From assembly GCA_951406725.2 (NCBI GenBank), contig OX597829.1, forward strand, positions 19,530,001-19,594,000: 64,000 nucleotides of DNA, given 5' to 3'. How positions within the stretch are numbered: the stretch's first letter is position 1; the number at the start of each line of letters is the position of its first letter. This DNA is from Octopus vulgaris (taxonomy: Eukaryota). The position numbers and the translations under genes are program-made. The notes under the pieces are model-generated. The model had not been told where the DNA came from. It searched no databases and saw only the letters and a program-made list of their open reading frames with translations. Below are positions 18,752-49,134 of this stretch, piece after piece.

Positions 18752-18821
18752 CTTGTCTGTATCATACAATAAACATTCAACTCTTCTAATAAAAACAAAT
18801 GTAAGTTTGTTCATATATATA

Positions 18822-18870
<49 letters not shown>

Positions 18871-18937
18871 ACATACACATGATTGTTGTTATTTATAGTT
18901 TTCTCTTGTTTTATTTAAGAAAAAAAATTTTTTTCAG

Positions 18938-19570: not shown

Positions 19571-19834
19571 AAATAATGCTCGCAATAATTTTTTGTTTAT
19601 TGCTGCAATTTCATTTATAAATGATGGACCCTCCCATCAAAGACGACATACGAGTGTTCAGCTTTTGCCAAACGACCTTGGTACTTATTCTATCATCAGT
19701 CTATTTTGCCAAACTACTAAGTTATGGGGACATAAACACACCAACGCTGGTTGTCAGACACTGGTGGGGGGCAAAAACACAGACATACATACACACGCAT
19801 ACGTGTGTGCTTGTGTGTGTGTATGTATGTATGT

Positions 19835-20110
19835 CGGTCGATGCCAGGTCTGCCTGACTGGCTCCTGTGCCAGTGGCATGTAAAAAGCACCATCTGAAAT
19901 GTGGCCAATACCAGTACTCCCTTACTGGCCCCTGTGCCGGTGGCATGTAAAAAGCACCTTCTACACTCTTAGAGTGGTTGGCATTAGGAAGGGCATCCAG
20001 CTGTAGAAACATTGCCATATTAGATTGGAGCCTGGTACAGCCACTGGCTCTCCAGATCTCAAACCATCCAACCCATGCCAGCATGGAAAACAGACATTAA
20101 ACACTGATAA
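19835..20110 (+). mobile_element. Family C retroposon, (GAT/CAT)n-tailed (many copies, e.g. 20440-20810, 37639-37835, 38288-38525, 54500-54790, 58040-58247)
   Basis: Shared motifs gcattaggaagggcatccagctgtagaaac and ccaacccatgccagcatggaaa...gttaaac(gat)n. Confidence 0.75.
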
Positions 20111-20925
20111 TTATCTTATATATTTATATATATATACACACACATACACATACACTATTTGCCATTTAAATATAAAAACAGTTAATTCTTTGTAGCAGTT
20201 TATTCAATGTTCATAGATGAAGTGTAACACAGACATGCATGTGCCCTGTGGACATCATTCCTAGCCTTGTGATGCATTTTTACATTTATTGTCTATTTTT
20301 TACTTGTTTCTGCAGAGATGCATTAGAAAGTAAGCTGAACATTTAAGATAAAACTGAGCAATTTCACAAAAAAAAAAAAAAAACAATTATTAATGTTCAA
20401 GTTTGCTTTTATATTTTTGTTTTGCAACATTATCATAATAATTTAACATCCATTTTCCATAGTGGCATGGGTTGGACAGTTTGATCAGAGCTGGCAAGCC
20501 AGAGAGCTGCACTAGGCTCCAGTCTGATTTGGCATGGTTTCTAAGGCTGGATGCTCTTTCTGACACCAACCACTTTACAGAGTGTGCTGGCTGCTTCTAC
20601 ATGACATCACATGAGTGCTTTTACATGGCACCAGCACAGGACTCTTGTAGACCAATCCTCTTCACCAAGGAGAGCAGACTTAATACTTCTGTTATGGAGT
20701 ACAGGCTTTCTTGAGTACAGCAAGGCACCAGTTATCTTGGTCCTTTGTCACCTTGTCTGAAAGGTTCAGTGTTCTGAAGTCGTCCTTCACTACTTTGTCC
20801 CATGTCTTCCTGAAATGATTTTAATATAAAATTGTCTCTGTGCTGCAAAATTTAAAATAATTTACTATTATAAAATATCTTATTTTCATATGATGATTAA
20901 TTTTTTTTTTCTGTCCCTTTCTCAG

Positions 20926-21106
20926 TCACATAAATCAGACAACTACCTGGTCACATCCTTTATCTGGAACTCAGCAATTCCCATCAACTGGCAGCTATGC
21001 TCAAGTATCACAAACAGCAAGCAGCAGCACAAGTCCATCAAGTGCTTCAAGAACTAAAGCCCTTCCACAACCAGGACCAAGCATTTTGAAAGAGACAAAG
21101 AATTAA
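20926..21106 (+). CDS. STXBP4: STXBP4-like terminal coding exon: end of WW domain, S/T/P-rich tail and stop
   Basis: tttctcag|T CAC ATA AAT... Translates HINQTTTWSHPLSGTQQFPSTGSYAQVSQTASSSTSPSSASRTKALPQPGPSILKETKN*, with TAA at 21104-21106. Confidence 0.93.
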
Positions 21107-22550
21107 TATCTCACTCTTTCCACAGTTTATCTTTAAAAAGAAAAGAAAAGAAAATTAGCCAAATCAGCTTGTCATTGTTCATCATCATCATCATTATTAT
21201 CATCGTTTTTAACTTCCACTTCTCCATGCCTGCATGGGTTCAGACAGTTTATTGAGGCAGATTTTTCAACAACTGGATGCTCAACCTGTCACTAACCCTC
21301 ACTTGTTTCCAAATAAAGTAATATTCCCCCACCTCCATGGCCAGACATGTTTTGCACAGAATACTGGAAATGAATGAAACTCTACTTGTATAACAGTGAC
21401 ACTCATTTACAACAATCATGCAGTGACAAGACAAGACACAAACAATCTTTCAGTTTCCCTCTCCCAGATCCACTCACAAATCTACTGAGGCCATAATAGA
21501 AATATATAGTGTGTATATATATATATATATATAAGCTATAGTGTTGTGAAGTTTTCTATTAGCCTTCAATATTTCAGAGATGTACATAAATCCTACCTTT
21601 GTATTGTCTGTGTGTATTTCTAGTTCTGAGTTAAGAGAACTGAAGTTGAAAATAATGTCACTGGCTGACATTACTTTCAATTGTGAAGTGAATTCTTATT
21701 TCTTTACGATGATTCAGTTTGTTTTATTTCCATCTTTTTATGCTAGCATGGGTTTGTGGAGTACATACTGTTGGGGCATTATTTAGCAGCAAGGTACTTT
21801 TCCTATTGTTCGCCATTATCTGTTCCTTGATTAACAAATCACACTGTGTAAACATGCACACAATACACACACACACACACAAGAAGGGCTTCTAATTTCA
21901 CTTGCAAAGCATTGGTCAACCTGGGGTTGTCAATGAAGACCCTTACCCAATGTGCCATGCAGTAGGGCTGAACCCAACACCACATTGTTATGAAGTGACA
22001 CACTGAGAAACTCAGTGTATTTGATTTCTTTCTCCAATGGGTTCTTTTGTCTTTTATGATTTTCTCAGAAACTTCTAATGGTGATTGGTTCACTTTCTTA
22101 TTTTTGTATTCATATCATTTAGGCTTTTGATAGAATTTGTTTGAAGAAACACTGGCAAATTCAAGAGTGTTTTCGTATTTGTAGTTTTATATTGGTACAG
22201 GTGATCTGAAAAATCCTCATTCTAAACATTTGCATGGTTGAACCTGTTCGGCATGGAAATCTTATGCAAATCACCTTTAAACTGATCATACTTGTTTATA
22301 TCCTTGGGTCTCTCTTGAATTTGCAAGAAGAGATGGATCACTTAATGTTTTTGCGTTATCCATTGTTATAAATTAAAAATAATACGAATAAAAAAGAGCT
22401 TTGATTACTTACCCTGGCAAGATAGAAAAAAAAGTCATCTTTGTCTTCAATAATGCAAAATGTATTTATGAATTGTAAACTTATTTAATAGATTACTTCA
22501 TTTGTAAACAAACATAAGTTTGTGTTTTGAAGTGTTGAAATGTATTGTAG

Positions 22551-25600: not shown

Positions 25601-28600
25601 CTTAATATAACACTAAATTTGTCTCTATCATATTAACAAGTAGTATAGTTTCTTAACAAGGAATTCTCTATTGTTTGCATTTATCAAAAACTTCCTTTCT
25701 TGAATATTATCATGTAGAATCTTGGCCATTTCTGAACCAATTTGCTAAACATTAGTGCCTTCATTTTTTACAAAAACTAAGTTTGTCTCAACATATCCTT
25801 GTAACATACTGATATTGAAAATATTTAAGAGTTTAGTTTTTATCTGGAGGATTCCAGCCTCTTATTTGTGCCTTACTTTTTAAAGTTTTATAGTATCAAA
25901 TCAGTTGTTCTAAGATTTTGTTTCTGTTGCATAATAAACAACAGTTCACTTCAGCATTTACTTACAAAATAAAGCAATTATTTTTCTTGCTAGAAGATAA
26001 ATTAGTTAAAAACTGCTCAATTGTTACCTTGGTATGCAAGATAAAAAATTTTATAGTAATCATAAAACTTTAATCAGTTTTTAAAATAATTTTTCAAAAT
26101 TCATTGTCATTCACTCCTTTATCACTTTCTTTTTTTTTATCTACAGAAATTAGTTGAATTAGTTTTGGGGAGTGATCTTGTTAATGTAATTAAGTGGTTG
26201 GGCTGTGTTTACTAATTAAGACTTCAATTTAGACTAAAAAGAAAAGGCTTAAATGTTAAATCCCTGACACTGGGTTCTAATCAGCTATTTTCAAACTGTT
26301 CTCAAGATGACCTTCAGTTCTGGTTTTGAACATGGTCTAAAAATGAAAATAAAGACAATTGGGATATCTATAGTTCCCCAATTATTTTTCTGTATTTGCT
26401 AAAATGCTATCAAACTGATTATTTTTGTAATATTTTTCTAAATTAATTTCAATTTTGTAAGCAGTTAGAAGTATTGCAATTTTTGTATCTTACATGCAAT
26501 AATATATTTATAAACATTTCCATAATAAATTTTATACAAATGAAATTGCTGTGCACTTTTGTCATTTTTACAATTTCGATATTCTTGAATTGCCTGTAGT
26601 ATTGTACTAAATCTATAATTTTTAAACCTCATTTTTGTCTGTAGATGCTTCATTGGCATGCAATGGAGGGTTGTAAGCTAATAATTTATTTTCACTAAGT
26701 CAGCAGGACTCGTTACCAAATCGTGTATTGTACTCTTTTTCACTCATCCATAGAAATGAGTCGCGACATAGAGAGGGGAGGCTGGTATGCATGGGTGACC
26801 GCTGGTCTTCCATAAACAACCTTGCCTAGATTTGTGCCTCAGAGGGGAACTTTATAGGTGCAATCTCATGTTCATTCATGACCAAAGGGGATCTTTACCC
26901 TTTTTTAAGATATCTAGTAGATGTGTGATTTTGTTATATCACAATTGATTACAAGCTTTCTGATGTTAAATGCGACTTGCTGCAGAACATATGCCAGAGA
27001 TCTCAACTACAGAATACAGTATCTTTTTTTACCTTCTGACAATTATTTTAACTGTAGCAGTACTCATCTCATTCTCTGATCCCACTCTCCCTCCTCAAAA
27101 CTGATATTCACTGCAGCTACCCTGTTCTCCTATCTCTAATTATCTATCGCATACTTTCACTCTAGGGTACCTACCTACCCACCATCTACATTTTCTGTTC
27201 CTCAATCCTCTAACTGTCATATTCACCTTAGGGCACCTTTTCTGTTTGTCTCTCTTTCCAGCCAGAGAAGCCATTTATTCACCCTTTCAGTGGGACACCT
27301 CTTCCCGACCCTCTCATGCTTTCACATCCTTCAATACTTTATATCACTCAGTTGATGTCTTATGTTGCACATCACTTTGTAACATTGCTAGTACTACAAA
27401 TAAAAGCACCTACAGTGAAGTGGTTGATATAGATCTAACCAAAGAAAACCCATGCCATAGCAGACTTTAAAGCTGAATGCAGTCCTATGGCTTGTCTGAT
27501 CCTGTTGAACATCCAACCCCCATGCCAGGATAGAAGACTAGATGTTAAATAAAGAAGATATATTGTAATGAAATTTTGGCAGTTTCCATCTCACTTAACT
27601 TAACTCCCAGACTATTTATCAATCTGACGTTATAGTGCCATGCAAAGATACTGGATCCAGAACTACAAAGCAAACTTAACATGGACTGTAACAATCTTTT
27701 CTACTATATGAATAAGGTCTGAAATTTGGGGGCTAGTCGCATAGATTGACCCCAGTACTTAACTGGAATTTATATCACTGACACTGAAAGGCGAAATTGA
27801 CCTTAATGAGATTTGAACTCAATAATGTAGAGACAAAATGCCTACTTGGTATTTAAATATCTTTTAAGGGGAGATAATCAAACCAGTACAATAGCTATTT
27901 AGACGCCTGAAAGAGCAGGCATAATCGTAAGTATTCTAGCCACCTTCCTTTTCTAGTTTACACAGTACTACATCATCCAATGCATGTCTTATGTGAGACC
28001 GTAGGCTATTTTTAACAAGTCGCTCGACCAGTGTGACATGCAAAGATTGGTAGGGGAGATAATCTCACTATTTAGCTACAAGAAAATTTAGATTTTCCAA
28101 TGTACTTGTAATATAATTTAGTCTAATTACATTTTCTTAAACCGAAAACTTTAAAATCAGTCACTTTAGCATTGAACCCGAGGCATGCAAAACAAAACAT
28201 CACTACTAACATTCTTCAGTTTTAATTCCCATCACTGTATTTGGTGGGGGACTGGGTGCACTTGTACTTATAAAATATGGTGGTAGAAGTATTTAGTCCC
28301 AATACAGTGGATAACTTATAAAAATACTGTTTTCAAATTTTTCGCAAGGGCCAATTTCATGAACCCTAGTACTTCACTGGTACTTAATTTATCGACCCTG
28401 AAAAGATGAAAGGCAAGGCTGATCTTGACATAATTTGAAGTCAGAACATAGCTACCAGCAAAATACCACCAAGCACTTCATCCAGCATGCTAACAATTCT
28501 CCCAGCTAACTGCCTTATATAATATTAATAAAAATACAGAAAACTAATTCGTTTAACCTCAGAAGCAACCTTTCCATGTGATCTCCAAAGAGCAGTAAGT

Positions 28601-28924
28601 CAATTTCATACCCTGATTTAACTGTTTGTTATGTGTTTAACTAATGAAATAAGCTATGATTTCAACTTATCTGCATTTACATAATGCTTTGTCTCTTGGA
28701 CTTAATCTAAAAAGCTGAAAATATGTATTACTTAAAAATAGACATCCTCTTTTCAAACCCATGAATAACACAACTTTCAGCAAATGGTTGTTCTCAATTG
28801 TCTGTACAAAGAAAAATACTTTCAGAAATGTGGTTTTTTTTTTTTTTTTTTTGCTTTTTACTTCCCAGTTTTGAATCAAAAGCTAGAGAACACATTAAAA
28901 TGAATTCTGAAAGGAAAGATGAAA

Positions 28925-28989
28925 ATAACAATGTAAACACAAAAAGAAAGTGAAACGAAGTTTTGTGATAACAGTTTTTATTTTTTATT
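28925..28989 (-). terminator. Canonical polyadenylation site (minus strand)
   Basis: Two AATAAA hexamers (28989-28984, 28982-28977), CA dinucleotides at ~28967-28964, then the U/GU-rich tract ttcgtttcactttctttttgtgtttac. Confidence 0.55.
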
Positions 28990-29959
28990 TAATTCTTTCA
29001 TAAGAAAGGAGATTGAGTGAATTTCCGATGCTTCGAAGAAAATTATGCTTCTGTTTGATGATTGAATCTTAATGTGGAATGAAAATTTTCTGCACAAAAT
29101 GGAGCAGGGAATATGATTTCCAATAAGCCTGATAATTTCAGTTTATGGAAGTAGCAGCTAAATTCTAATATCAAAGGAGATTGATGAAAAACACCAAAAA
29201 TCTCCGTTTTGATGAAAACTAAAACACTATGGGTGTTTTTGTTTAGAGAGATTTGTAAGTTTGATGTTTCAAAGGGGGATAGAAGAACAATTTTAGTAGA
29301 CAAGATACACTCAAAAGGCAAGTTCCATCATGGTATGTGTGCGAACTGCCATAATCAAAGACTTGTCAGTGTCAATAGCAATTGAAAGAGAAACAAATAC
29401 CCCAAAATGGAATAATGGGAATGGTAGTGATAGAGGAACTACTTTTCATTAGTATTAGTAGAAAAATGACATGGAATTGTCAACCCATAAATATGGAAGG
29501 GAAGAATCAGCAGAACCACAAGGAATCTTTGATGCTACAAGATCATTCATAGTAAAGCAAAAACAGAAAAGGAAACTTTCAAAGGAACTGAAGGACACAG
29601 CTGCAAAATTAGAGACATCAATGGAACTAGTCTCCAAATGGCAATAGCTAACACACTAAAACGAACTGATGATAAGATATAGGATTCCTGACAGAAACTA
29701 TGGTAAAGAAGGTTATGACAGATGTTACAGATATAACTTTTGAGCCATGAAAATCAAGCAGCATAGAGGATAGGTTATTAAAGCGTGAAATCTATTTCAG
29801 GTTTCGAAATGTATTTAACAGGGAACTGACCCCAAAACAGAAAGAAAATTTCAGGAATGATAATTGATCCCAAGATATCTTTTTTTTATATACCAGCAGA
29901 AAGCAAAGTGATAGCCAAAGATCTCTGATAAATAACATTTCCAAGCAAACAAGCAGTTA

Positions 29960-31900
29960 TATTTGCCAGGAGACAAACTCCAAATAGCAACAGAAGAGAT
30001 TGAAACAGAAACGGGATGTATCAGGGAACATCCAGAAAGCAAGAATAGGATGATTGAGAAAAATAGTATGAGTAAAAGTACCAGGGGAACACCCCAAATA
30101 GCAACAGCAAATATATAGTGCTGCATCAGAACATCCGTATTTGGCAAAAGAAAAATGATTAGGATACATTACCAAAAGACAATAAGAAAGGCAGCCACCG
30201 GTAATTTTGCCAGGGATATCCCCAAATGGCATAACTAAAAACATTGCCAGGGAATATTCCCAAATGGCAATATAAATACCATCATTAAATTTCAAAATAA
30301 CAGAAACACTGCCAGGGGAGATATCCCCAAATGGCAATACAAAAACAATGAGACAACCTCCACCGGTAATAGAACAAAATATGAGAAAGGTATTGTACTA
30401 GGAATATCCTCAATGGGAAATATTACCAGGGAATGACCTCAAATGTTACCAAGAAAAAAATGGCAACTGAATCAAAATCTGGGTATATGGCCTGATAATA
30501 AATCCCAAGGTAGGGTTTTAAAACACTATGAGAGAATATTTTATTATATATAGTAAAATATAAAACATATTTTACTATATGTGTATGGCAAGAAAAAGAA
30601 AAATAGATAAGCAAGAAAGCCAGGGGACATCTCCATATAGCAAGAGAAATAAAATAGTATCTAAGGACAGATATCTCTAAATGTAAGACAAATAGATAGT
30701 AGTTGAGAGAAATATATAGCACCAGAGGACAGACATCCTCAAGTAGTAAGACAAAGAAAAAGAGGTAAGAAAAATATAATAGCACTTAGGAAGATATCCT
30801 CACACAGCAAGATAAATCGAAGGAAGAGAAACTATATAGTGCCAGGAGATGGAGACAAATAGATAGAAGAAAGAGAAATATATATGATGCCAGGGGACAG
30901 CTATCTCCCAAATGGCAAATCAAATAGATAGAAGAGAAATACATGCCAGGGAACTTAGTCCCAAATGGCAATGTAGAGATGAGAAGAATAAAATAGCATT
31001 TAAGAACAGATATCTCCAAATGGCAGTTAAATAGAGGTAAGAGAAATATTCAGTACCAAGGGACAGATATCCCTATATTGCAATATTGATAAATAGATAT
31101 CAGAGAAATAAAATAATGCCAGGGGTTTAGATGTTTTCATATGGTAAGTTTAATAGAGGTAAGAGAAAATAAAAAGGGCCAGGGAACTGATATTCCCATA
31201 TGGCAAGGGTGAGTGCCAGGGGACATCCCCATATGGCAAGAGAAGTAAGTAGTTGCAGGGGTTACACCCCCATGGCAGGAAAATTAGATGCAAGTAAGGA
31301 CAAAAATAATTAGCACAAGGGTATAAATGTACCCAAGTAGCAAGAGAAATAAACAGTGTCAAGGGTCATACCCATATGGCACAAGAAGCAGATATAGATA
31401 GAAGTATAATACATACACACAAATATAGTGCCAGGAAACAGATGTTCCAAAATGGCAAGCTGAAGGAAAAGTGATAAGAAATAGACATGAGCAAGAGAAA
31501 TAAGTAGTGCCAGGGGTTATACCCAAATGGCAAGAGAAATAGGTATAGTTATGGTTTAATGCTATTTTTTAGCACCAGGGGACAGATAGCCCCAAATGGC
31601 AAGAGAAATAAAGAGTGCCAGGAGACATCCCCAAATGGCAAGAGAAATATGTGTATAGCCAGGGAACAATACTAACTGGCCAGAAATAAGCAGCATATTT
31701 TAGCAAGAAATATATTTATGGCACTAGAGTATCTGTCAAGATATCTCTAAATGGAAGAAATACAGATAACCCCAGAGGATATATATATATATGGCAACAA
31801 AAGTAGTATCAAAGGATGCCAAATGAGAAGGGAAATAGCACCAGGGGACATTCCCAAATAGCAAAATATATAGTGCCAAGGAACATTCCCAAATGGTAAA
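29960..31900 (-). repeat. Array of ~30 degenerate bulged stem-loop units with variable pyrimidine-rich linkers
   Basis: Plus-strand consensus GCCA-GGGG(A)-loop-(T)CCCC-AAA-TGGC-AAGAGAAAT. Clear copies start at 29965, 30080, 30209, 30246, 30311, 30619, 30721, 30889, 30945, 31055, 31178, 31215, 31430, 31509, 31574, 31617, 31840 and 31875. Confidence 0.9.
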
Positions 31901-33633
31901 AGTAATGAACAATAATAATATTTCAATATTAGTAAAAAAAATATTTTAAACAAATTATAAAATAACCATAAAGAAAAATAAGGAGAATGATGTTGCATAT
32001 AAATGATTTCAAATAGAACTCTCCAAAAATGATCATAATAAGAGTTAAAATTTTAAACTAAGGATGGGAAACAAAAAAAATATTGCTTCTAAAATTGCTT
32101 AGTAATTCAGTATGAGAAAATTATACTGCCAGAATTTAAGAAGCATGAGATCCAAATTAACTATAAAAATGAGAGAATTATGCAAGATATTTACATTTTC
32201 ATGATATGATGAAATGATGATTGTTGTTTTTTTCCCCCCACAGCTGTATTTTGTAATGTCTCAAACATTCAAAAACGCTGACAATTTCTTTTTTTTTTTG
32301 TCAGAAATGATGTAGATAATTTGATGAAAACCGAAAAATGTTGCATTTCAAGAAAAAAAGTTCAATACAAAATAGAATAAATAAATAAATAAATAATACA
32401 ATGTTAATAAATTTTTCAAAAAATAAAATAAAAATAATTAAATGCGCATTTAATTAAATATTAAACAGGACATAATAATAATTTGAAGTACACCAGTAAA
32501 AAATGTATTCTGACCATAAAAAAAAGGAAAGTAATAAAAATATACAATCCAACAATAAAAAATATTTCAAATACTTTTTTTAAAAAAAAAAGGCCTTTTT
32601 TTTTTTACCCCCTCCAAAAATAAAAACATTGTTAATTATAATGTTTAAAAAAAAAAGTTTTGTATTTCACAAAAATTCTTGATTTTAAAATGAACTTTTC
32701 GGTACGTTTTCAGTTGTATTCGGACTTTGGTAAAGGAAAAAAATCTACATCAGAATTGTCAAATTCACAGAATGTGTTCTCTAATCAGGTGAAAATTAAT
32801 TGCAACAATGTTAGAATACAGCAAACAGGTCATTTTAATATCTCAGTGCAAAAGATTATGGTATAACTTGAGTGTATAGAAGGAAAATACATCATTTTCT
32901 TTTTCATTTAATTTTCTAGAATCTCAAGAAGTATTTCTGGCAGTATGTTGTGAAATATAGGTTTTTGCTGACACAAGACCAGAAATCTCAAGGGAGGATA
33001 GAGCTGATTATAAATTGATCTCAATACTTGATTGGTACATATTTTTACTGAAACCTGAAGAATGAAAGACAATGTCGACCTCAATAGGATATGAACTCAG
33101 AATGTAAAGAGCCTTAACATAAACACCACAAAGCATTTCGTCCAACTCTTTAACAATTCTGCCAATCCCAGTATTAACAGTATTAAAGAGGTGTGGAAAA
33201 AATGAAACTCAAAAAGATAGGATTGGTTTGATGAGGAAAGGAAAGGAAAACCGGCTTTTAATGGAGGTTGCTCAGAATGACATGATGAAATAACAAAAAT
33301 GGAAAGGAAAAAAAAGTATAACATTAAAATATTTCAATGCTATACTTTTTTTTGTTGTTGTTATTCAATTTTAATTCAAAATGAATTTAGATGTAACATT
33401 GTAACTTTAACATCCAAAGCTACTTAATGTAGTACATAAAGTTACTATGTTACAAGATGGGTATACGCACAGAAATGGTTGTTGAGAAAAGAAGCTCAAC
33501 GATATGCATCACAATACAACACCTTGGGCAAGTGCATTCTATCATAACTTTGAATTGGCCAATGCCTAGAGAGCCAAATTTAGTTGGAAACCAAATCTGC
33601 TGATGTATATAATGTAACAATTATGTGGAATAT

Positions 33634-33771
33634 CACTAGCGTAGCTACATGGGATGGAGGGGACGTTTACCCCAGGTGGCACCACTTTTGGGCTTGCAGT
33701 AAGCAATATGCATGGGGGGGCACAAACTAAAGGGTCACCCCAGGGTGGCACACACTCTGGCTATGCTACTG
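33634..33771. mobile_element. Small GC-rich MITE
   Basis: Imperfect TIRs cactagcgtagc / gctatgctactg. Confidence 0.5.
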
Positions 33772-33825
33772 GAGTATATATATACATATATACATATATA
33801 AAGCAAATAAGTAATATATATATAC

Positions 33826-33903
<78 letters not shown>

Positions 33904-36900
33904 TTTTACTTGTTTCAGTCATCTGACTGCGGCCATGCTGGAGCACTGCCTTAAAGAGTTTTTTTTCAGTCGAATAACTCGACCCCCAGGCCTTATTCTT
34001 TGTAAGCCCAGTACTTATTTTATCGGTTTCTTTTGCCGAACCGCTAAGTTACGGAAACATTGGTTGTCAAGCAATGGTGTGGGATATATATATATGTTTG
34101 TATGTATGAATGTATGGGTATACAAGTGCATGTGTATATATGTGTGTGCATGTGTATATGTGTGTGCATGCATGTGTATATGTGTGTGCATGCATGTGTA
34201 TGCATGTATATATGTGTGTATGCATGCATATGTAGATGTGTGTATTGTATGTGTATACATGTATATGTGTATATATGTAGGTATGTGTGTACTGTATGTG
34301 TATGCATGTATGCATATATATTTATAAATATAAATTTATGCTTATATGCCTACAACTTATGTGGACATTGGCAAGAAAACAGATAAACAAGTAAATTTCA
34401 TACAACAAACACCGTGTGGTATTTGTTCTGCCAAGTTGCTCAGATGCTCCCTTGACACTCTTGCCATACAGTGAACTATTGTTTGGCTCATTGGAAGCTT
34501 GGATTCAATGACACAGTTGTTCACAAATTTCAATAAATAAACATACAAGCAAGACAAAGAAAATTATCTAAGAAGGCCTAACATTTCCTATTCTTCTTCA
34601 AGTCAAGAAGTGTCCACATAAGATGTTAAACAAGATGTTTAGGCATATCTGCTAATATTGTTCTAACAATTGACCTATTATGGCATATGATTCTGCCATA
34701 GTAATTCTTAAAACAGGTGAAAGTATATATAATACCCTCTCTCACACATTACAGTTACTGTAACAGAAAGTTATACTTTAGATATTTAGATTATTTAACA
34801 ATACTACTTCTATTAAGGGACTATAACTATGAAATCTGATGTATCTACAAATCAAAGAAATACTATTTAATAACATAATATTTATACTATAACTAACCAA
34901 AAAGTATCTTTTCACACAGAATGGTCAACTTAAATGAAAATATAGCAATAAATTGAGGTTTTTATATCTAACACTTCCTTCTAAATATGCAACTTAAGTC
35001 TAAAGAGATAAACTATTAGTTGTTAACTCGTACATAAAGTAGCTATGTTTTTAGTAAACTAATTGTAAATTATTCTAATCTAAATATTAATCTGCAATCC
35101 TTTCTTTCTTCTTCTAATGACTAAGAATAATTTCTTTCCAGTCTCATCTAAATGTTTCACACTGCACAGCATCACATTTTCAATCGACTTGTTTCAGTCT
35201 TCTGAAAGTATACAGAGAGAACTTTAGAAATTGACCCACGATTTGACCACATTAAAAAAAAAAAAAAAATTTTTAATTAAAAAAAAAAATCTCTTATTGT
35301 AACTTAGTGAAGATACTGATTGTATTTACCAAATTTGTAATGAAAATAGCATTTGAAATAGCTATTTAAATTAAATATATGTTGATGAAGTGAACTTTAA
35401 TAAAATGTTTATATAGTTATTAACTAAAATAATTATAATAATAATAATAATCAGAATATACTCCCTGATACCATACGCTTCTATTGTCATCTGGTTCTGG
35501 TTTGCAAATTCTGGAACCCACCCATGCTTTCTTCAGAAAAACACGTGAAAACTAATTTGAATCAATATGTGAAAACACATATCTGTAAAGAGACAAAAAT
35601 AATGTTATACCTCATCCAAGACTATTTTTAAATTAAATCCTGAAAAAGAATAATCCTGAAAGAGAATTTTGTCAGAATTATTGTGTGTATGCATATTTGT
35701 TTTGTTGTATTTTTTTTTTGTAATTTTTTTTAAATTTTTTTTTTTAAGCTAAAATAAAAGAATTTTCTGATTAGTATTCATTTTAAAGGATATAGTCGCC
35801 CGGACGGTAATGTTCAGGCGTTCCCAACTCCTTAAAAAAGGAAATAGAAATCTCAAACGAAAATATGCCAATAATTAATTCCATTATTTGAAATTAGAAT
35901 ATTGACAAATTTACCAATAAAAGATTCCATTTTATTACTCCTGATAAACTGGTACTCCAAATAGGTGGCATCCGTTATATTTGGCATATAAAAACATAGG
36001 AATTTTTTTAACAGGGGGCATGGGGCAGTCTGCAGCATAATTTTTGAAGTACCAGTTGTTACCTGAAAACAAACAAAAAAAAAATTGTTTAAAATTTTAT
36101 TGATCAATGAACTTCAACATATAAATTACTTGTTAATGTTTCAATGAAATATAAAATAAACTCATAATATAATACAATTAATAAGGATATATTCTGTCCA
36201 AAATTTACAAAATATGAAGGATAAAATTGACCAAAAAATCTAATTTCATTTTTCAGGTTCAGATTTAAAGTTAATCAGTAAAATTATAAATACTTTTATC
36301 AGATTAAGGGAGGCAACTACTTACATGTTTGAAGGCAAAACAAAAATTACATCTTCAAAATATTAAATTACAGAGGATATCAAAACTCATTGCGTTGTAC
36401 GTTAAAAGGAAACTTTACCCTCCTGGTAATTTTGGTGATGTTTTATACTAGAGGGATCAGGGAGGGCACAACCAAGGATTTTTAAAAACATATTCGAGGG
36501 ATTTAGCTACATAGTTTTATGAAACTGGTTTGGACTTGTTGAAGGAGAATAAGTTATATCTCCATTAAAAGCTGTCTTCGTTCGCAGGGAAAAGACTAAG
36601 TATATAGAGATTTGCTACATTTGTTTCGCTATTTTTATACTATATTATTTCTTTTAAACAGGTTTATAAGTTACAAAAAATAAAACACCTGTTTTGTTTT
36701 ATTTCTGATAATGTAATGGAACTGTTTTAAAATTGAAAAATATTCGAACAGATTAACAAGGGGTAGGAGGAAATACCCCAGAACACACTCTCCATGCAAA
36801 CTAAATCGTAACGCTGGTGGTAAAATAATTATTGAGACAAGAAATTTTTATTATTCGAAATTTAATTCATGGTGAAGGGAAAGAATCAATCTTTGATTCA

Positions 36901-37399
36901 AGACAGATAAGGGGGACAACTTTAAATTTTTTTTAAAACTCTCCAGAATCCGTATCAACGAAATAATAAAAAACGTTAATTAAAACATGAGGGCATAAAG
37001 GGAGTTAATTAGCACACGGTCACGACCTGTCGTAATGATTCTATTACCAAGTGGTGTCTCTAAGCCTTGAATGATTTTCTAAGAGACAAATGTAAAGATT
37101 CCTTAATTTGCAGAGCTGAGTAAATGCAAGCAAAATTAAATCAAAATACAAGTTTCACAAAAATAATTTGATGATCATGATGTCTTAGATAAAAACATCG
37201 TTACTGGCAAGTGGAATTCACAAGGCCAAAAGCAGAGCAGGCATTGACTGCGTTGAGAGCAGAAAAGGGACTATTGGCTGTTTTGTATTGCTCTCAAGTG
37301 ACATTCTAACAGTTTCTTTTTCTTTTTTTTCAGATTTTCACTTGGTATTGTGAAAGAATTGTGCACCATCACTAATCAATCTACAACATGACACATGCA

Positions 37400-39080
<1,681 letters not shown>

Positions 39081-39122
39081 GTGAGAAAGTTGGTGTGTGA
39101 AAGCACGTGGTTGAATATATAG

Positions 39123-39939
39123 AAAATAGTAAAAAGTGAAAAAACTACAGAAGGCTTGTTTTAAAAGGTTAAAAATATATATATTTGAGTCATTATGTCA
39201 GAAGGATGTTATAAATTTTTTTCCTACAATGACATAGTTTTTGAAGAAATGACCGGTTTCACATTCAGCTTTTCAAAGTTCTTACATCGTTTTGTTTTCG
39301 TTGAGAAGTGTAAAGGAGAGTTCCAGGTAAGGGGAGGTAATAAGTGATTTCTTCCGGTGTAAGGGAGATAAGCGCTTAATATTTCTTGCCTTTTTTGGGG
39401 GGTGAGTTTCTCTGTATAAGAATGCTGGAGTGGTTAAGTTTGGGCGTATATTTTTCAATGAAGAATGTTTCCTTGTTTAGTCTAATTTGTGTTGGTGTTC
39501 CGATAGCACATTGGTAAAATGGAAAGATTAAAAATTGTGGTAGTAGTTGCTTTGCGCATTTCTCAATGTGTTCACTAAAGGGTATCATTCCGTATTCTGG
39601 GAATGCAATCTGTTGTCGATGCAGTGTGCATCTACGTCTGAGTGATAGTCCCGTGGTCCCCACGTAATTTTGGTGGCAGCCCAAGCATCTTATGATATAA
39701 ATTGTTATCAGAGGCACAAGTAAAATTAGATTTGATCTTGAATTTCTGTCCCTCTTTACACTTCTCAACGAAAACATAACGATGTAAGAAATTTGAAAAG
39801 AAGAACACGAAACCGGTCATTTCTTCAAAAACTATGTCATTGTATGAAAAAAATTTATAACATTCTTCTGACATAATAACTCAAATATATATTTTTTAAC
39901 CTTTTAAAACAAGCCTTCTGTAGTTTTTTCACTTTTTAC

Positions 39940-39945
<6 letters not shown>
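39123..39945 (-). mobile_element. 5'-truncated Penelope-like retroelement: GIY-YIG endonuclease remnant between inverted pseudo-LTRs
   Basis: Minus strand reads FKIKSNFTCASD/(frameshift)/IYIIRCLGCHQNYVGTTGLSLRRRCTLHRQQI...HIEKC...RLNKETFFIEKYTPKLN, which has the GIY-YIG motifs plus conserved R, E and N. Inverted repeats of ~192 bp at 39123-39315 and 39754-39945. Confidence 0.85.
39786..39825 (+). ncRNA. Minimal type I hammerhead ribozyme-like motif (U3-A8 variant); second copy at 39244-39283 on the minus strand
   Basis: AAGAAAT-TTGAAAA-G(aagaaca)C-GAAA-CCGG-TC-ATTTCTT: 7-bp stem I, core, minimal stem II, palindromic helix III loop, GUC cleavage triplet. Confidence 0.6.
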
Positions 39946-39984
<39 letters not shown>

Positions 39985-39986
<2 letters not shown>

Positions 39987-40208
39987 GGCTGCCCCCTATT
40001 TATCGAGTATGGCCATTGCACGAAGCTTAACTGTTACTGGTGCTGTGATTAAAAGTGACTTTTCAGCCCAGCTAAAGATCTACAATGTCTTGTACAAAAT
40101 TGGCAACTAAGACCTTTAGCCGGCTGTAGTTGTAACTGGGCTTCATGTACCTTTGCATGTCGTTTAAGTCCTCCTGCCGAATTACACTCTCTTCCACATG
40201 CCCGGCAG
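39985..40208 (-). mobile_element. 3' end fragment of an RTE-like LINE with two C2H2-type zinc fingers
   Basis: CRACGRECNSAGGLKRHAKVH...CQFCTRHCRSLAGLKSHF*, then a short UTR running into (TA)n; both ends embedded in microsatellite. Confidence 0.55.
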
Positions 40209-40242
<34 letters not shown>

Positions 40243-40869
40243 GTGTGTGTGTGTGTGTGTGTGTATACATATACATACACACCCAAATGAACCCACACAT
40301 ACCTCCCATACATGCACGACAGCTGGAACGCCCTTCCTAATGCCAACTACTCCGAGTGTAGTGGGTGCTTTTATGTTCCACCGGCACGAGGGTCTGTCAG
40401 GCGGTACTGGCAACAACCATGCTCAAAGCTGTTTTTTATGTGCCACCTACATGGAAGCCAGTCCAACAGCACTAGCAATGACCGCCTTCGAATGTTGTTT
40501 TTCACGTGCCAGTAAGGCGACACTAGCAACGATCACGCATGAATAGTGCTTTTACGAAACACCGGCATGGGAATCGGTTAGGAGCCCGGGCAACGATCAC
40601 GCTCAGATGGTGCTTTTAACATTCCACTGCCACGGTACTGTCAGTGGCCATGTCAGCGATTTTAATTTCACTTGTATCAACAGGTCTTCGCAGGCAAAGT
40701 TTATTGTCCAATGAATGAATGAAGGGTACTCATAAGTGGGCTAGTTATACACAACTGGCATAAGCCATGGGTTATGGTCTAATTTGGCTTGCCGGGTCTT
40801 CTCAAGCAAAGCATATCTCCAAAGGTCTCAATCACATATACATGCATACATACATAACATATACATGTA

Positions 40870-41328
40870 TCTATATATATAAAACTCAACTTGTGTGTCT
40901 GTGTGTGTATAACTTCCTGGCACATCAACTAACTAACAATTCGTAGAACCACCAAAAATGGGTCACTTAAAGTTTAGGCGAATGAAAATTGAACTGCGCT
41001 ATTTCTGTTCCGAAATTCATCTCGCAAGTGCAAAAATCGATAAGGTGTTTGTTTAGGCCTTACCCCATGCATTGAATAGTGAACTTTACTCAGTCAGCTG
41101 TTTGACGTGAACTGTGTTCACCACGCGTGCAAGCATGCGTAAATTGCATGAAAAATTAAAAATCAAGATATAAAAATGAATCGCCGTAAACATTGTAGAA
41201 ATTCGGCAAAGAAATGAATTTTCGGGATGTAGCCTGGGTTTTTTCGTATTAATTGTTTGGACTTTGTGAGCACATACCAATTCTTTTCATAACATTGACC
41301 ATCTTGCAAAGCCGGGCAATACTGCTAG
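40870..41328 (+). mobile_element. Non-autonomous Helitron
   Basis: 5' A|TCtatatatataaaactcaacttgtgtgtctg; 3' gcaaagccgggcaatactgCTAG|T. Confidence 0.65.
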
Positions 41329-41350
41329 TATACATATAAATATACATATA

Positions 41351-41394
<44 letters not shown>

Positions 41395-42433
41395 TATACC
41401 TGCATACATACATATACATGAATACATACATATATATACATGCATACATACATATATATATATGCATACATACATATATATATGCATACATATATATACA
41501 TACACATATGTTTATATATATATATAGGGAGAGCTCACGAAAAAAAACAAAAGATGAATACAGGTAGTGTACAAAACAAACAGATGTATTAGTATAACGC
41601 TCAGGAATTGAAAAAGTCCTTTACATTTCGAGCCTACGCTCTTCTACAGAAATGGGCACAGAAAAAAACAAGGAGAGAACCATATTCATAAAAAAGTATT
41701 ACCACCCTCAAACTTGAGAAACAAACACATAACTTTTTTCGCTTAAAACTCCATTGCATAAGATCGATACTATGAAATTGCTCAAATTGATCTCTATCAT
41801 TTAATCTTAATTAAAATATAGTTTGTTTTTAAAATAATAACATTAATTATACTTAAATCCAATTTTGTGCCTTATTTAGATTATTTTTAATATTTTACCT
41901 CAACTTTTTTTATACAAATTCATGAGAACAAAACTATGAAATTTTTCACTTTTTGCAATCATTGAAGCTAAAATAAATACATTTTCTTTTTAAAAATAAA
42001 ATTATTTAGATCTAAATGTTGTGGGGAGACAAACACAGACACACATATATACAATGGGCTTCTTTCAATTTCCATCTACCAAATCCACACTCAAGGCTTT
42101 GGTCAGCCTGAAGCTATTGTGGAAGACACTTGCCCAAGGTTCCATGCAGTAGCACTGAACCTGGAACCATGTGGTTGGGAAGCAAGCTCCTTATCCAAAG
42201 AGCCACTCCTGTGCCTATGTATATATAACTCTCTGCAGGACACAAAATAGTAAATAATTCCCAGTAATGTGATCCTCAAAGATTGAAAGTCAGCACTGAT
42301 TTAGCTAATCTGAGCATTGTGCAGTTGTGGTTGTGTGGTTAAGAAGCTTGCCTCCCAATCTAGTGGTCTTGGGTTCAGCTGCTGATGTTCTTAAGCAGTT
42401 GCTCCTGCATAACATCAGGAATCACAAATTTAA

Positions 42434-42782
42434 GCTATCATTCGGTTTGACTCGAATTTTTTCAACAAAATCTCCGTAAGTTTCCGTGAACATGTGCTGT
42501 CTCGTCAACTGTCAGTTGACGAAATGGGAAGGGAAAGCTAATGGGTTGTAGGTGCGTGCATGCTTGTTCCTATGTGTGTGTGAGCACACAGAGACACAAA
42601 CAAGAACAGAGGAACAAGCACGCACGCACACACACACTCAGAGCAACAAGCACGCTCGCACGTACAACCCATTAGCTTTCTCTTCCCATTTAATTATCAA
42701 CTGACAGTTGACAAGACAACACGTGTTCACGGAATTTAGCGAGTTCTTTGTTGACAAAAATCGAGTCAAACCGAAAGATAGC
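42434..42782. mobile_element. MITE with ~140-bp terminal inverted repeats
   Basis: gctatc.ttcggtttgactcga...gctaatgggttgta..tgc mirrored by gca..tacaacccattagc...tcgagtcaaaccgaaagatagc. Confidence 0.8.
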
Positions 42783-43269
42783 CAATATCTCTTTGAATTC
42801 CTGTTTATGCAAACCTTCTTACTCTCCTCAACACACGTAATTTTTTTTTAGCGGGGTGAGCAGAATACTGTGCTGAAAATTAGACATCGCAACTCTGCAA
42901 AGTAATTTTTTTCCAAAATTTCGACTTTTTTGTTTTAAGACTGATTGTTATCGCTAATCTTCCATTTCCACTTTGCGATCAAAAACAGAAGGCAAAAAAA
43001 TAATAAACACGCTTATAGTGAATGCATAACATGCTCTGAATTGAAACAAATTTAAATTGAGTTTAATCACCTCAAAATGTGGATCGCAATTATTTATATC
43101 TTAAGGAGGGTTATGCATTTTTGAAGAACAATAATATGGCCCAACTCAATATCATTCTACCTGAATATTTAAATGGGTCTAATATACAAGAGAAAAAACA
43201 CTTGCCCATCGTTCAAGTTAGCCGCTACAAAAAACGTAGGAATGACGTTTAATGAGAATCACTCTATGT

Positions 43270-43682
43270 GACACAGGCATGGGCAATAAAGGCAAGGAGT
43301 TTGTTTCATCCTGACCACATGATTAGAACAACCACACGGTTTCGGATTCAAATCCCACTGCATGACACTTTGGGTGTCTTCTACTATAACTCCAGGTCGA
43401 CCAAAGCCTTGTGAGTGGATTTGGTAAATGGAAACTGAAAGAAATCTGTAGTATGCGCGCATGTGTGTGTCTTTGCGTTCGCCCCACCACCACCACCGCT
43501 TGACAACCGGTGCAGGTATGCTTACGTCCATGTAACTTAGCAGTTCGGCAAATGGGATCGATAGAATAATTACTAGGCTTGAAAATAAAATAAATACTGA
43601 GGTGGATTTGTTCGACTAAACCCTTAAAGGCAGTGCCTAAGCATGGCCGCAGTCTGATAACTGAAACAAGTGCAAAATAAAA
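43270..43682 (+). mobile_element. Family A SINE
   Basis: Head, core and tail as in the other copies. Confidence 0.8.
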
Positions 43683-44137
43683 TATGCCATTAGGTTCCTC
43701 TTTTGTATTTGCTATAATGATGTCGTACGAAAGACAACGCTCCTATTTTCAACGTCGTTGGTCAACGCCAAACTACCCGGATGGCTCTCAAATCTGGGGA
43801 AAAGTTGTCTTAGACGGCTTAACCCCCGACAATAAATCCTATGTTCGTTTCTACGGACATCGAGCGATCGAGATGCAACAGACCAATTATAAATATAATC
43901 CCACCACCCCCATCGGGAGGACCGTTGCACCAAAGGAAATTGATCAATTTCCCCATAGTTTCAATGTTGATTTATAGTGTTACTGACAAACAGAAGAATG
44001 TTACACAAGCCAGGTCCAAAGATGCTGAAATCTCTAAGACGTGACCAAGAACAATCCAATGACATGAGGATGCGAAGAAAATCCGGAAAGACTATCTTTA
44101 GAGCACCGGTTAAGTCGATGAAATCATTATTACAATC

Positions 44138-44194
44138 ACTTCCGGTTTAGATGGATTAAGACCAATCTGGCAGCTACTCATTTGCATATAAAAG
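44138..44194 (+). promoter_or_regulatory. Promoter-like motif cluster (ETS, CCAAT, octamer, TATA)
   Basis: ACTTCCGG at 44138, CCAAT at 44162, ATTTGCAT at 44180 overlapping TATAAAAG at 44187, in a CpG-rich segment. Confidence 0.35.
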
Positions 44195-46591
44195 TAGACG
44201 TTTGGGCGCGCTCATCCTGGCATCTGTTTATAATCTCAACATCGCTAAATTGATTTTGTTTATTCATTTAAGATGTTCCCACAAAAGAGCAATATTAATG
44301 CATAATGCACGTTTGAATTAGCTTTATATTTAAATAAAAGGAAAAGCATTTTTACCACTTTCAGAGACCCTACTACAGATTCAATTAATTCAATTCTTGA
44401 CAAAAAACAAGTCTCGGTTACTTCAAAAGTAATTCTTGTCACAAAAATTTTTCTTTTACTCTCTTAGAGAGCATTAATATTCCCTAATCTTTACACTCCG
44501 GTCACGAGTTCAATTGAATTTGTACTATTGCAACAAACTGTTCCCTATATTGTGTATGCGAGTTAATTTAATAAACTACGCATTTCCACAAGAAGAAGAA
44601 ATATTCAAAAATTATTTTAAACGTTTTCATTTAAGACGCAATTATTATATGCCCTCCATTTCAAGATAGATATCTTTTCTGTTTATCTGTTTTATCTCCA
44701 CATACCCTTTTCCCGCCTCTTTCCTCGCCTTTACCCTCTCTCAAAATATTTCATCATTTCTAAATGAATATCTTTTTTCTCTCCCTTCGTTACTCTCTTC
44801 CTCTCTATGACCTCTTTTGTTATCGCCCACTATCTGAACTTTACTCTATCTTTTTTATGCTCTTAATCCATTAGTGCAATAAACGTCCGTGCTTATTTCC
44901 TCTTCTACAATGCGGTCTTACAGTTCAAACAGACAATAATTGTAACCAATTCGAATACAAAAACCAAGGATTAGGTTGTTGGTTTCTTTCTTTTTTCTTT
45001 TTTGGCAAAGTTAAAAGTCAGCAAAAAGTTTCAATTGGGGGGAAAAAATCACATTAAATTATGAGAATTATGAGCCACGCATTGGATTCATTTGAAAAAG
45101 AGAGAATATGAGAGACTGCTGGATTAGGAAAAGGATTAAATCGATTTTTACTAGTCAAATGTTCCTTTATTGGATACAGCTCCAAAGTGTTTCGTCTTGT
45201 GTTTGAACACGAAATTCGTGTATTTTATAATCTTGAAAATTTAATACCAGATCTTTCCGGCGAAAGATTTTCTTTTCTGCTACTCAAGCCAGAATTTAGG
45301 CCAGATACAAATCATTCCATGAATGACCAAAATAATTAGGTAAATATTTCGTAAAGGACCCATTCGTACCTCGGCACCTATTTTTTTTTCCACGGTTTTT
45401 TTTTTATCGAGTATCTGACCTCCAAAACTCGCCGCAAGCCACTTTTTCCGGAAACAAAAGCGGGTAAGGGGTCACAAAATTATTTCAGTCAAATATCGGT
45501 GGGTCCTTTATCGCAAATAGCTGTTAAGTGGTAGAAGGGACTGCTAGAAATAGCAGGCAAATATTTCTTTTTCTGGAGAAAGGAGCCGTTTACTTTATCA
45601 ACACTAATTGCCAGCTTCCTTGACTAATTAATGAGTAATTATTGCCATAAGCTGAACATAAATTATCTTTTATAACAGTAGTTAGCTCGTTACCAATCAT
45701 TTGATAGTTACCGTTTCGAACGATCGGTCATAGCTGAAAAACACGAGGGATCGAATCATAACGCGGTCGTTCGAACTGCTAAAAATTGCAGTCGAGTCTC
45801 CTTCAAATCACATTCCAACATTTTAAAATAGAGAGAAGTCATTGGAAAATGTGGTTCTGAGTAATAAAAAAAAATGGGATGGTCATGAGTCATTGTTTTT
45901 GAATCAAAGATCTCGATCAGAGCAGGCCAGGGGCTAAACAAAGGGAAGTTTATGTGATATTGCGGTATGTTTTAAATAAGCTTGTTATGATCTCAACGAC
46001 GAAGTGTGTGTGTGTGTGTGTATGTATCTGAGTAAAATTCTAAGAATGTTAAAATATTTGATTTCCGCAATAGAAACTAGAAACGTGAGATTAGTATATA
46101 ACAATCAGCATTTCTTTATTTATAATCTGATTTTGATAATCAGTTTTAGAATGGGGGAAAAAAGGCGAAAGAAACGAATGAATAGTAACAAGGATGTAAA
46201 ATAAAATATGAGCACATATTAATAAAAAAAATTCATAAATTATTAAAGGTCACAGTAAACGAGAACGTAATTTCATAAGTGTACAAAGAATACTTAAATG
46301 CAAAGACTGAATTTAATTACATTGCAATTTTCTCACACACGTACCCTCATGTGCGTATGTGTAATTATTAATACGGAATACATATACTCATGTTCTGAGC
46401 TATTTTCACACACACACACACATACATATAAATGTATCTATGTATGTATATATATATAATACATATACACCATTATATGTATATTGATATACACATGTAT
46501 ACGTTATATACGAGTAATTATGTGTATATATATATATATATGTATATATTACATATAAATTTGCTATACACACACACATGTATACCCCACC

Positions 46592-46650
<59 letters not shown>

Positions 46651-49134
46651 ACTTCGTGGCCCTTCTAATGTCAATATAATAACTGAAGATAATTAATTAA
46701 AAAATGTGAAGAACTTACCTCAAAAATTATACCCAGACACAAGATGCGTCAATTCTCCCTCTCACACTTTTTTTTTTTTTTTTTTAGGATAAAGAAAAGA
46801 TATAATCAAATAAATTTTGATCATTATGCTTTCCTTTCAATGTAGAATTACATTGAAAATATATTGTATATATTATTTTAATATATACTTTGAAAGGGAT
46901 GGGGTGAGAGACAGTTGACGCTTAAGCACAACAACCATAGTCATACGGTTGTGGCTGAATCTGCACTAATGAGACAAATAGTCCTTTACAGTTTATAAAG
47001 TCTTCGAAAACATTGGGGTGTATTACTACGCCCCTGCTATTTACTATACATTTGAAAAACGAATTCAGAAAGTGATTTAATATATTTTTATTTACTTAAA
47101 TTTACAATGGTTCAGATAGATGTTGTTATGGGTAAAATCATTAAAAATCTTAGAATTTTTAATTTTCTTATAAGAAAAAAAGTGCATCAAGAAACAGGAA
47201 GTTGGTAAAAAGTTCCTAAATATCGGCCATTTTAATTATTCCAGAAATTTCCATCATGAATCCTCCATGAAATATTTTACAATCATTTAGCTTTTAATTC
47301 TTTAAAAAAAAAACCAACTTTTTTTTGTTAATATATTATTAGTAATACTATACATGTACCTTTTTTTCACTTTAGAGAATATATTGTAACAATCTGGCAC
47401 AGATGTATCATTTTAAGTATTTTCTGTTGAAACTGCTTTTTGAAAAAATACACCCATTTCAAATGTTGTCTTAAAAATCACCTGATTTATCAGTAAAACT
47501 TACTTTAAATATTACATGTTATCTTGATTTTATTTGATTATGTTTTCATATACATGAAGGCCAACTTTCTTTGCCTGTAAACTTTTTTTTTTTTTTTGTA
47601 CATTGAATTACTAATTGTGCATAAATCTGTTATAATTTAGGTGGATAACACAAAGAATTTTCACCATTATCGTTGATGCCTTCACATTTTTACACACACA
47701 CACACACACATATTTAAATGTTGTTCATTCCACCCCCACACATTCAAACCTGATCGAGCAGATCTTGTTATATAAATCAAGGGCATCCAGACCGCGTGAC
47801 TACAAGTCTTAGCTTTATCTGGCTTTTCATTACTTTGTCCTCTTTTATGAAAAAGGAATATGTGTGTGGTGTATTGAGATAAGGGTGATTGTTTTTTTCA
47901 GGCAGGTCAAGCGACCGCCAAGAAAGCGATTTTAATTTTTTCTCTTTTTTTTTTTTTTTCTTTTGCTCTTTTTGCAATTCATAGAATTTAATACGGCGCC
48001 AAAAGTGTTAACTAAAGTTTCATTTAAAAAAAAAAGAATGAGAATTAAAATTGATTTAAAAATAGAATTGAGCTCATTGGAATTTGCTAGAGTCGTTTAT
48101 TAATCCACCATGCTATTTCTCTGACTCGTCTTATCGCTGGCAGAGAGAGCATTTGCGGTCATTAAATTTGTAATATAAAAAGTATACAGAAAGAAACTAA
48201 TGACCTGTTAACAATCAAAATCAAAAAAGAATATTTTTACAAGTTTGCAAAATATGTTTTGTGTTATTTTTTTCAGCAGTTTAGTCTGCGCCCTTTGACC
48301 TTCCTTCCCATTGACATCCGTCACTCATGGGGTGGTGAATTAGTCTCGTACTTAAAGAGACCTGGCTCAAATTCTTTGACCAACGTATTTCTTTAAAAGG
48401 ACACTTAGAGGCCATATAGTGTTAATGAGGCAATAGAATAAATCTACCCATCACTTGATAGTAATATTTATTTTTAGTGCTGTATTGGTCTAATTAAGAG
48501 GTCATTAGATTAATTGTTGTTCAGCCCCTGGTCAGACCTGCGATTCCAAACCATGATCAAAGTCGTTGACTATTTATTTCCTTGAACAGTGTATGCTGCA
48601 CAACCCTATCCCGTGTCCAATTTTGTAGGACTGTAGATTTCGTGAAAATTATAAATCCTTTAATTACTTTGTCAAACCACTTCTGTGGCTCCCTCTTGCC
48701 TTTCCTTTGCGATTTCTATCATTGATGAATCCCAAGGAATGAATAATTATCGTACTATATGACTCATGCAAATTTTGTGTCTATTAATTTTCAGTGGTAG
48801 CATTCGTTGTTTAACTCCAAGTTAGCCTTCGACAAATAGAAACCTCAATACCAATGGTTTTTTTAGGCCATAAAACCATCCTTTCTTTCCAGACATTGCT
48901 CAGAAAAAACAAATTCGGTGGGTGTGATTTTAGAGGGAAATTGGTTGTTATTTCTGGTCGGTTGGGCTTACCACTAATTCTTCTCTAAGCATTTTGATTA
49001 ACTCAAATTAGACATCGGAATACATTATGAAACTTTTATTTATTGTCAATTTAGGATTTAAAAGACATTGCGACTGAAATGTTTCAGTTGTCTAAAAACT
49101 GTTTATAACTATCGACATACTATGTATTTACATA

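Follow-up and report, generated by a model that had tools for sequence, protein, structure and literature searches.

A stretch of 64,000 nucleotides of Octopus vulgaris DNA (contig OX597829.1, positions 19,530,001 to 19,594,000, referred to as the window) contains a tandem array of short bulged hairpins, which raises the questions of which RNA carries the array, whether its structure is kept by selection and what it could do. A preliminary description had proposed the repeat domain of a minus-strand lncRNA with a layout like that of Xist repeat A. This proposal received strong independent support from the finding that the array lies at a single locus within the last exon of the lncRNA Zmast, while protein scaffolding stays a prediction.

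Zmast, the non-coding host RNA of the array

Zmast (gene id OCTVUL_1NCB338440) has been reported as a male-specific lncRNA of O. vulgaris, whose Z is chromosome 16 (C16); it spans 18007 nt (19.5589-19.5769 Mb) and has one exon of 7098 nt and a second, short one at 19.576719-19.576972 Mb (10.1101/2024.12.09.627507). Its male bias is 256-fold (mean 990 vs 3.8 TPM in 17 male vs 23 female paralarvae), it is conserved in O. sinensis, and it was proposed as a dosage-compensation candidate in a species with partial Z compensation (male:female 1.12); damping or inactivation of the male Z was suggested, neither of which was tested there (10.1101/2024.12.09.627507). The candidacy of Zmast has so far come from expression alone, with no mechanistic handle.

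In the window, the long last exon (7098 nt by the preprint coordinates) covers 28965..36062 on the minus strand and contains the array; a polypyrimidine tract with a CAG acceptor ends at 36063, and two AATAAA polyadenylation signals (28977..28989, minus strand) lie 12 and 19 nt upstream of the annotated 3' end. The first exon (46719..46972, minus strand, 254 nt) is immediately followed by a GTAAGT donor, and between the exons lies a GT-AG intron of about 10.66 kb (36063..46718, minus strand), the exon join being inferred from the splice signals and the 18007-nt span. An unspliced T2 form covers 46972-45004 on the minus strand (10.1101/2024.12.09.627507). Because the preprint coordinates coincide to the base with donor, acceptor and polyadenylation signals, which are three independent matches, the identity of Zmast and its minus strand are fixed. 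The preliminary description had thus called the correct strand, although the G-U wobble argument on which it relied is insufficient to carry that call alone.

The array corresponds to positions ~4419-6353 of the 7352-nt spliced Zmast model, 1-3 kb from the 3' end. Zmast is non-coding, and a coding exon was rejected, as the longest ATG ORF in the spliced model has 95 aa and each frame carries 45-105 stop codons over 28500-32500. The 3' exons of an STXBP4 orthologue (~12628-21110, plus strand) are convergent with Zmast and end ~7.8 kb from its 3' end; the WW exon (18922-18996, plus strand) had STXBP4 as its best PDB match (2ysg, E 2e-7), and this neighbour offers a synteny anchor for locating orthologues. 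An STXBP4 3' UTR is an unlikely identity for the array: that gene lies on the plus strand, the end of its final coding exon seems to be near 21110, and the exon with the array has minus-strand signals of its own.

In the literature searched with Zmast and its gene identifiers, the preprint was the sole relevant account, and its main text, which treats Zmast in terms of expression and conservation only, nowhere mentions hairpin, stem, structure, motif, strand or repeat domain (10.1101/2024.12.09.627507). The hairpin domain is apparently undescribed, though it may have been noticed elsewhere (journal version, preprint figures or supplements). Within that literature the repeat domain and its strand are new here, while the host RNA was already known.

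Other features were observed along the transcript. Two adjacent hairpins at 29160-29250 (minus strand), ~200 nt before the Zmast 3' end, reached a z-score of -3.85 (0/200 shuffles) after being picked from a sliding scan, and in one of them a 5' bulge lies below a GGAGAU/AUCUCC stem, which matches the array unit in topology. At 33315-33464 (minus strand, Zmast exon 2), two long AU-rich stems (z -5.5; one of ~17 bp around a 27-nt loop) appear pre-miRNA-like or MITE-like and have no Rfam match at gathering score. About 110 nt beyond the annotated 3' end, the plus strand has a 20-nt T run (28834-28853); read on the Zmast strand this is an A run, at which oligo-dT could prime on read-through RNA. 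An 8-bp G-C-rich inverted repeat at 47015-47034, ~45 nt upstream of the annotated start, is a possible promoter element.

Units, linkers and genomic copy number

The core array occupies 29964..31898 on the minus strand and holds 23 of the 24 intact units plus about six degenerate ones. The 24th, an outlying degenerate unit (29616..29643, minus strand, 19.7 bits), is accompanied by a half copy at ~29320 on the 3' side of the RNA. The unit and the individual stems named in the preliminary description were present where it had placed them, and the consensus as RNA is UGCCA-U(U/A)U-GGGR-loop-YCCC-UGGCA with U/C-rich linkers. A short-loop unit at 31214..31238 (minus strand; 9/9 pairs Watson-Crick) serves as the type example, and a long-loop unit at 30720..30748 (minus strand) shows a G-C to A-U double change in each stem, at outer pair 2 and at inner pair 2. 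The earlier count of ~30 copies requires that degenerate or half copies (31025, 30809, 30849, 31779 and 31816) be included, intact units numbering 22-24; likewise, of the weaker copies said to extend to ~29100, the full unit and the half copy stood, whereas one at 29103 was seen with a loose pattern only.

Copies were scored with a sequence-only two-arm profile derived from 22 hand-picked minus-strand units, which match it by construction. At a threshold of at least 12 bits, 26 minus-strand units were found in 28965-32100 vs 5 in the remaining ~61 kb; the whole window had 31 minus-strand and 8 plus-strand matches, one of the latter within 28965-32100. Among array units, 24 scored at least 16 bits and 22 at least 20 bits; later counts refer to the 24, two units between 12 and 16 bits being left out. 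Half-site scans at 8 bits or more yielded 27 5' arms (0.6 expected) and 28 3' arms (1.5 expected), with about six extra degenerate copies. With covariance model R1 the next minus-strand match in the window after the 22 training units reached 12.2 bits (E 1.6), and Tandem Repeats Finder detected just a 143-nt piece of the array.

Across the 24 units the 3-nt bulge is kept, as had been claimed (UUU in 15, UAU in 6, CUU in 2, UGG in 1), and the linkers are indeed U-rich (48% U). Loops and linkers had also been described as free, which did not hold: most loops belong to one of two length classes (4 nt in 11/24 and 8 nt in 6/24 units), UAUUUCUCU occurs 11 times in the array vs 0 times in the remaining 3962 nt of the exon, and two-unit higher-order repeats are present. 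The linkers are homologous, and the array therefore arose by tandem duplication.

The array is a single-locus sequence. In the 2.80-Gb genome, the 2051-nt array matched only itself, and all 7 matches to the exact consensus pattern lay inside it. A loose pattern had 29 matches, 12 in the array and 17 on other contigs, with 0 elsewhere on C16; none of 10 scattered loci examined among these 17 aligned to the array at E<=0.01. These counts are lower bounds, as the search passes over very common words, and a diverged second array elsewhere is excluded to the reach of the pattern searches. The array is not a dispersed TE or satellite subrepeat, and a dispersed TE was rejected for the array as a whole. 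Several scattered loose-pattern loci sit in dispersed repeats common to one another. Single unit-like words were likewise seen in mutually similar dispersed repeats (L014, L016 and L018 on C7, C20 and C26, together with L009 and L010); these are a possible source of the founding unit and do not align to the array.

Half or more of the query words were carried by 20 of 24 listed public sequencing runs, none of which is on record as an RNA run, the run kinds being guesses. Four of the 24 were compared, as contigs only and without sex labels. Run X10 provided a 3025-nt contig over 28981-32005 with a single difference, 31630 C>T, which turns a G-U into an A-U pair in the array and is one case. The contig of run X17, over 28498-32366, deviates at 38 letters and has 16 gap letters; in this lineage, diverged by ~1%, the array is intact, over a distance too short to test constraint. 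By subtraction, X17 differences numbered 22 in 2502 nt vs 29 in 1892 nt of flank (Fisher P 0.047; weak). Runs X24 and X16 had no contig over the array, and the X10 contig ends at 28981 with the flank uncovered while X17 continues; such gaps and ends prove nothing about expression or sex bias. The segment 32445-33428 is almost invariant in X16 and X17 (2 and 1 other letters in 985), compared with ~1% difference in the array and 1.4-2% in the flank past the 3' end in X17; this part of Zmast could be under stronger constraint, or the runs could share a haplotype.

Conservation, covariation and predicted folding

When the 22 hand-picked units were aligned, RNAalifold returned, unprompted, a 5-bp outer stem, a 3-nt bulge and a 4-bp inner stem, and 88.5% of the 217 stem cells pair. 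Cells with double changes numbered 11 vs 4.6 +/- 1.6 in shuffles and the covariation score was 0.252 vs 0.196 (0/500 in both cases), with relatedness of these units uncontrolled. G-C to A-U swaps in single units occur at three different inner positions (29989, 30748, 31082), and the top pair occurs as G-C, A-U and U-A.

The relatedness of the units was taken into account with a tree of all 24, on which events were placed by parsimony and independent-site evolution was simulated under four models matched to the observed divergence; with ~50 columns the tree is poorly resolved, and its fixed register penalises slips in G/C runs. Thirty-two events were placed at seven core pairs: 11 ended in G-U, 9 in A-C and 6 in some other mismatch, 4 switched directly between Watson-Crick pairs, and one each led from G-U to a Watson-Crick pair and to a mismatch. 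Covariation corrected in this way was borderline: double Watson-Crick cells numbered 5 vs 1.0-1.5 simulated (P 0.031-0.052), and the share of changed cells still paired was 0.57 vs 0.28-0.45 (P 0.07-0.33). The reported preference for G-U over A-C was confirmed for outer-stem cells (19 vs 5, P 0.007) but disappeared over all cells (26 vs 15, P 0.12) and among the tree events at core pairs (11 vs 9, P 0.20-0.50) or at all pairs (15 vs 11, P 0.56). Similarly, the double changes lend marginal support to the view that structure is better conserved than sequence, whereas identity in the bulge columns is 91, 70 and 95%, on a par with the stems. In the core, column identity is 50-100% (mostly >80%) vs 41-83% in the homologous flanks, a contrast that is inflated by the calling of units on their core. 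Overall, the structural argument is weaker than had been claimed. As the tree-aware signal is borderline, the sequence alone does not prove selection on structure, and the kept element is best described as a sequence motif that doubles as a putative hairpin within a tandemly duplicated unit.

An alternative explanation is that the array is a neutral or nearly neutral degenerate minisatellite inside a transcribed exon, whose founding unit was palindromic by chance. On this view, descent and the picking of units, together with occasional DNA repair templated by hairpins, would produce the apparent compensation. Homologous linkers and higher-order repeats are in line with this, as are the lack of a significant G-U bias on the unit tree, folding z-scores resembling those of the remaining exon (see below), the decay of about one-fifth of the copies, and the ordinary microsatellites and dispersed-repeat pieces that Zmast exon 2 also contains. 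We nevertheless consider neutrality rather improbable: within the duplicated units, conservation is higher in the core than in the flanks, double changes are in borderline excess, including the single-unit swaps at 29989, 30748 and 31082, and the array is intact in the X17 lineage, for which the ~1% divergence is too short a test of constraint.

Predicted folding did not single out one conformation. Isolated units had a mean of -9.1 kcal/mol on the RNA strand vs -8.6 on the other strand, the RNA strand being more stable in 14/24. When the whole array was folded, both stems formed in their canonical register with P>0.5 in 4, 2 and 3 of the 24 units at maximum spans of 60, 150 and unlimited. In any register, the pairing probability of inner arms within their own unit fell from ~0.5 to 0.36 between spans 60 and 200, and that with other units rose from 0.16 to 0.28 (0.16-0.35 per arm overall); the adjacent units 31898/31863 were predicted as one ~60-nt hairpin (P>0.9). 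Mean z-scores of 12 array windows (-1.48) and of 35 windows of the remaining exon (-0.92) showed no extra structure in the array (P 0.35), nor did z-scores differ between strands (P 0.85). Since the canonical register is reached in just 2-4/24 units and inter-unit pairing competes, the prediction is an ensemble in which local hairpins coexist with duplexes between units, and not a set of 30 fixed stem-loops.

Proposed function and relation to known RNAs

We lean towards the reading that the array is a tandem sequence-plus-structure domain that would make Zmast a multivalent protein platform, similar in its working to Xist repeats A/E or to roX. The array sits in the 3' third of Zmast and derives from a 35-70 nt unit that was duplicated locally, the 21-nt core having been better preserved than the linkers. 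In each unit a U-(U/A)-U bulge would interrupt a short G-C-rich helix beside a U/C-rich single strand, the bulged helix forming as a local hairpin or as a duplex of neighbouring units, which would rebuild the same bulged helix. With about 25 copies, the RNA could then bind RRM-type proteins multivalently and with high avidity and nucleate a nuclear RNP, with the SPEN/RBM15 family on the helices and pyrimidine-tract binders on the linkers. In the last and weakest step, this RNP might act in cis on both Z chromosomes of ZZ males and lower their output, the homogametic sex being also where Xist and Rsx have this effect. That the platform RNP damps the male Z pair is a tentative proposal, suggested by expression in the homogametic sex, on which we would not rely. 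More doubtful still is its full form, namely that the octopus independently evolved an Xist-repeat-A-like module whose ~25-copy array recruits SPEN/RBM15-family or equivalent repressors, coating and damping both male Zs. If true, repeat-scaffold dosage-compensation RNAs would have arisen independently once more, here in a mollusc with a ZZ/Z0 system described as among the oldest known. The genome has three matches to SPOC-domain genes, and one locus (L019, C24:25422127-25425627) with a long open frame, RRM-like segments and a C-terminal SPOC domain was read by eye as probably RBM15/Spenito.

A functional RNA could instead serve the metabolism of Zmast or a post-transcriptional task, such as nuclear retention, transcript stabilisation or sequestration of RNA-binding proteins, or be a source of small RNAs if inter-unit duplexes were processed into species that damp Z mRNAs. 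In birds, a male-essential miRNA reportedly damps Z mRNAs, which is a precedent for the small-RNA variant, and the joint ~60-nt hairpin predicted for units 31898/31863 would suit it. By contrast, a pre-miRNA would need more than the 23-30 nt of a single unit, and the best sub-threshold Rfam match, MIR399, scored 21.5 bits against a cut-off of 57. Such roles would agree with the location of the array, 1-3 kb from the 3' end whereas Xist repeat A is 5', and with its pyrimidine-rich linkers, which resemble Xist repeat E, described as a localisation hub (PMC8786293); we regard these roles collectively as unlikely.

Very unlikely, in our judgement, is that the array acts as DNA, through palindromic sites for a transcription factor or compensation complex or as a cruciform-prone element: the arms are inverted repeats with near-equal folding on both strands (-9.1 vs -8.6 kcal/mol) and some inner palindromes resemble NF-kB sites, but the kB-like 10-mer fits just 4/24 units, arm spacing varies from 3 to 9 nt, a dimeric factor leaves the fixed 3-nt asymmetry unexplained, and neither half-sites (1/25 and 1/4 of the matches outside the array being on C16) nor the loose full pattern (0/17) are enriched on C16. 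A Z-wide DNA target motif was rejected on the same counts, for which the reversed-pattern controls contain CG and probably undercount chance.

The favoured multivalent platform was compared with known RNAs. Rfam 15 gave 0 matches at gathering score in the window and six sub-threshold matches at E<=10. The preliminary description had also likened the unit to HIV-1 TAR, in which the bulge U forms a base triple with the pairing order G-C, then A-U above the bulge, and the loop is CUGGG. The helix, the 3-nt U-rich 5' bulge and the short upper stem are shared with TAR; the likeness ends there, as the second pair above the bulge is not A-U, and the base-triple arrangement and the CUGGG loop were each found in 0/24 units.

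The roX box had 0 matches. Unlike roX, which acts in the heterogametic sex to up-regulate, Zmast is expressed in ZZ males, and its stems are far shorter and more numerous. Drosophila roX1/roX2 (MLE/MSL) are, however, also male-specific lncRNAs with tandem stem-loops and U-rich single strands, and MLE prefers U/A-rich sequence and tandem stem-loops (PMC7528653).

Xist repeat A, like the Zmast array, belongs to a sex-specific lncRNA of the homogametic sex and consists of ~25-nt G-C-rich units with U-rich linkers, in which intra- and inter-repeat pairing compete, a competition that in Zmast is predicted only. Xist repeat A has been described as 26-mers with U-rich linkers and inter-repeat duplexes, with the same hairpin/duplex ambiguity (PMC5742192), and tight SPEN binding reportedly requires at least four A-repeats (PMC10870365). 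The differences are that Xist has 7.5-8.5 copies at its 5' end, compared with 24-30 near the 3' end of Zmast; that each Zmast unit is one bulged hairpin, with no Rfam match; that the CAUCG/AUCG tetraloop of Xist repeat A is absent (0 CAUCG in the 1941-nt array); and that the SPEN-associated words GAUAUC/GAUAC/GUAUC occur in just 3/24 intact units. The palindromic word GAUAUC was seen 8 times in the array, mostly in degenerate units. The pyrimidine-rich linkers recall Xist repeat E, to which PTBP1, MATR3, CELF1 and TDP-43 bind and which serves as a localisation hub, and tandem repeat modules are shared with Rsx, a non-homologous lncRNA (PMC8786293); both likenesses are descriptive, and silencing or coating is a candidate function of Zmast. 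Judged by its sequence, the array would work, if at all, like the repeats of Xist A/E, Rsx or roX, being a member of none and not homologous to them.

As a defined 2-kb piece, the array is accessible to probing, pull-down and deletion, which makes it testable, here in a spiralian, whether independent sex-chromosome lncRNAs converge on the same RNA architecture and proteins. Xist, Rsx and roX have no common sequence and all act via repeated RNA modules, and the array is the first sequence-level reason to group Zmast with them.
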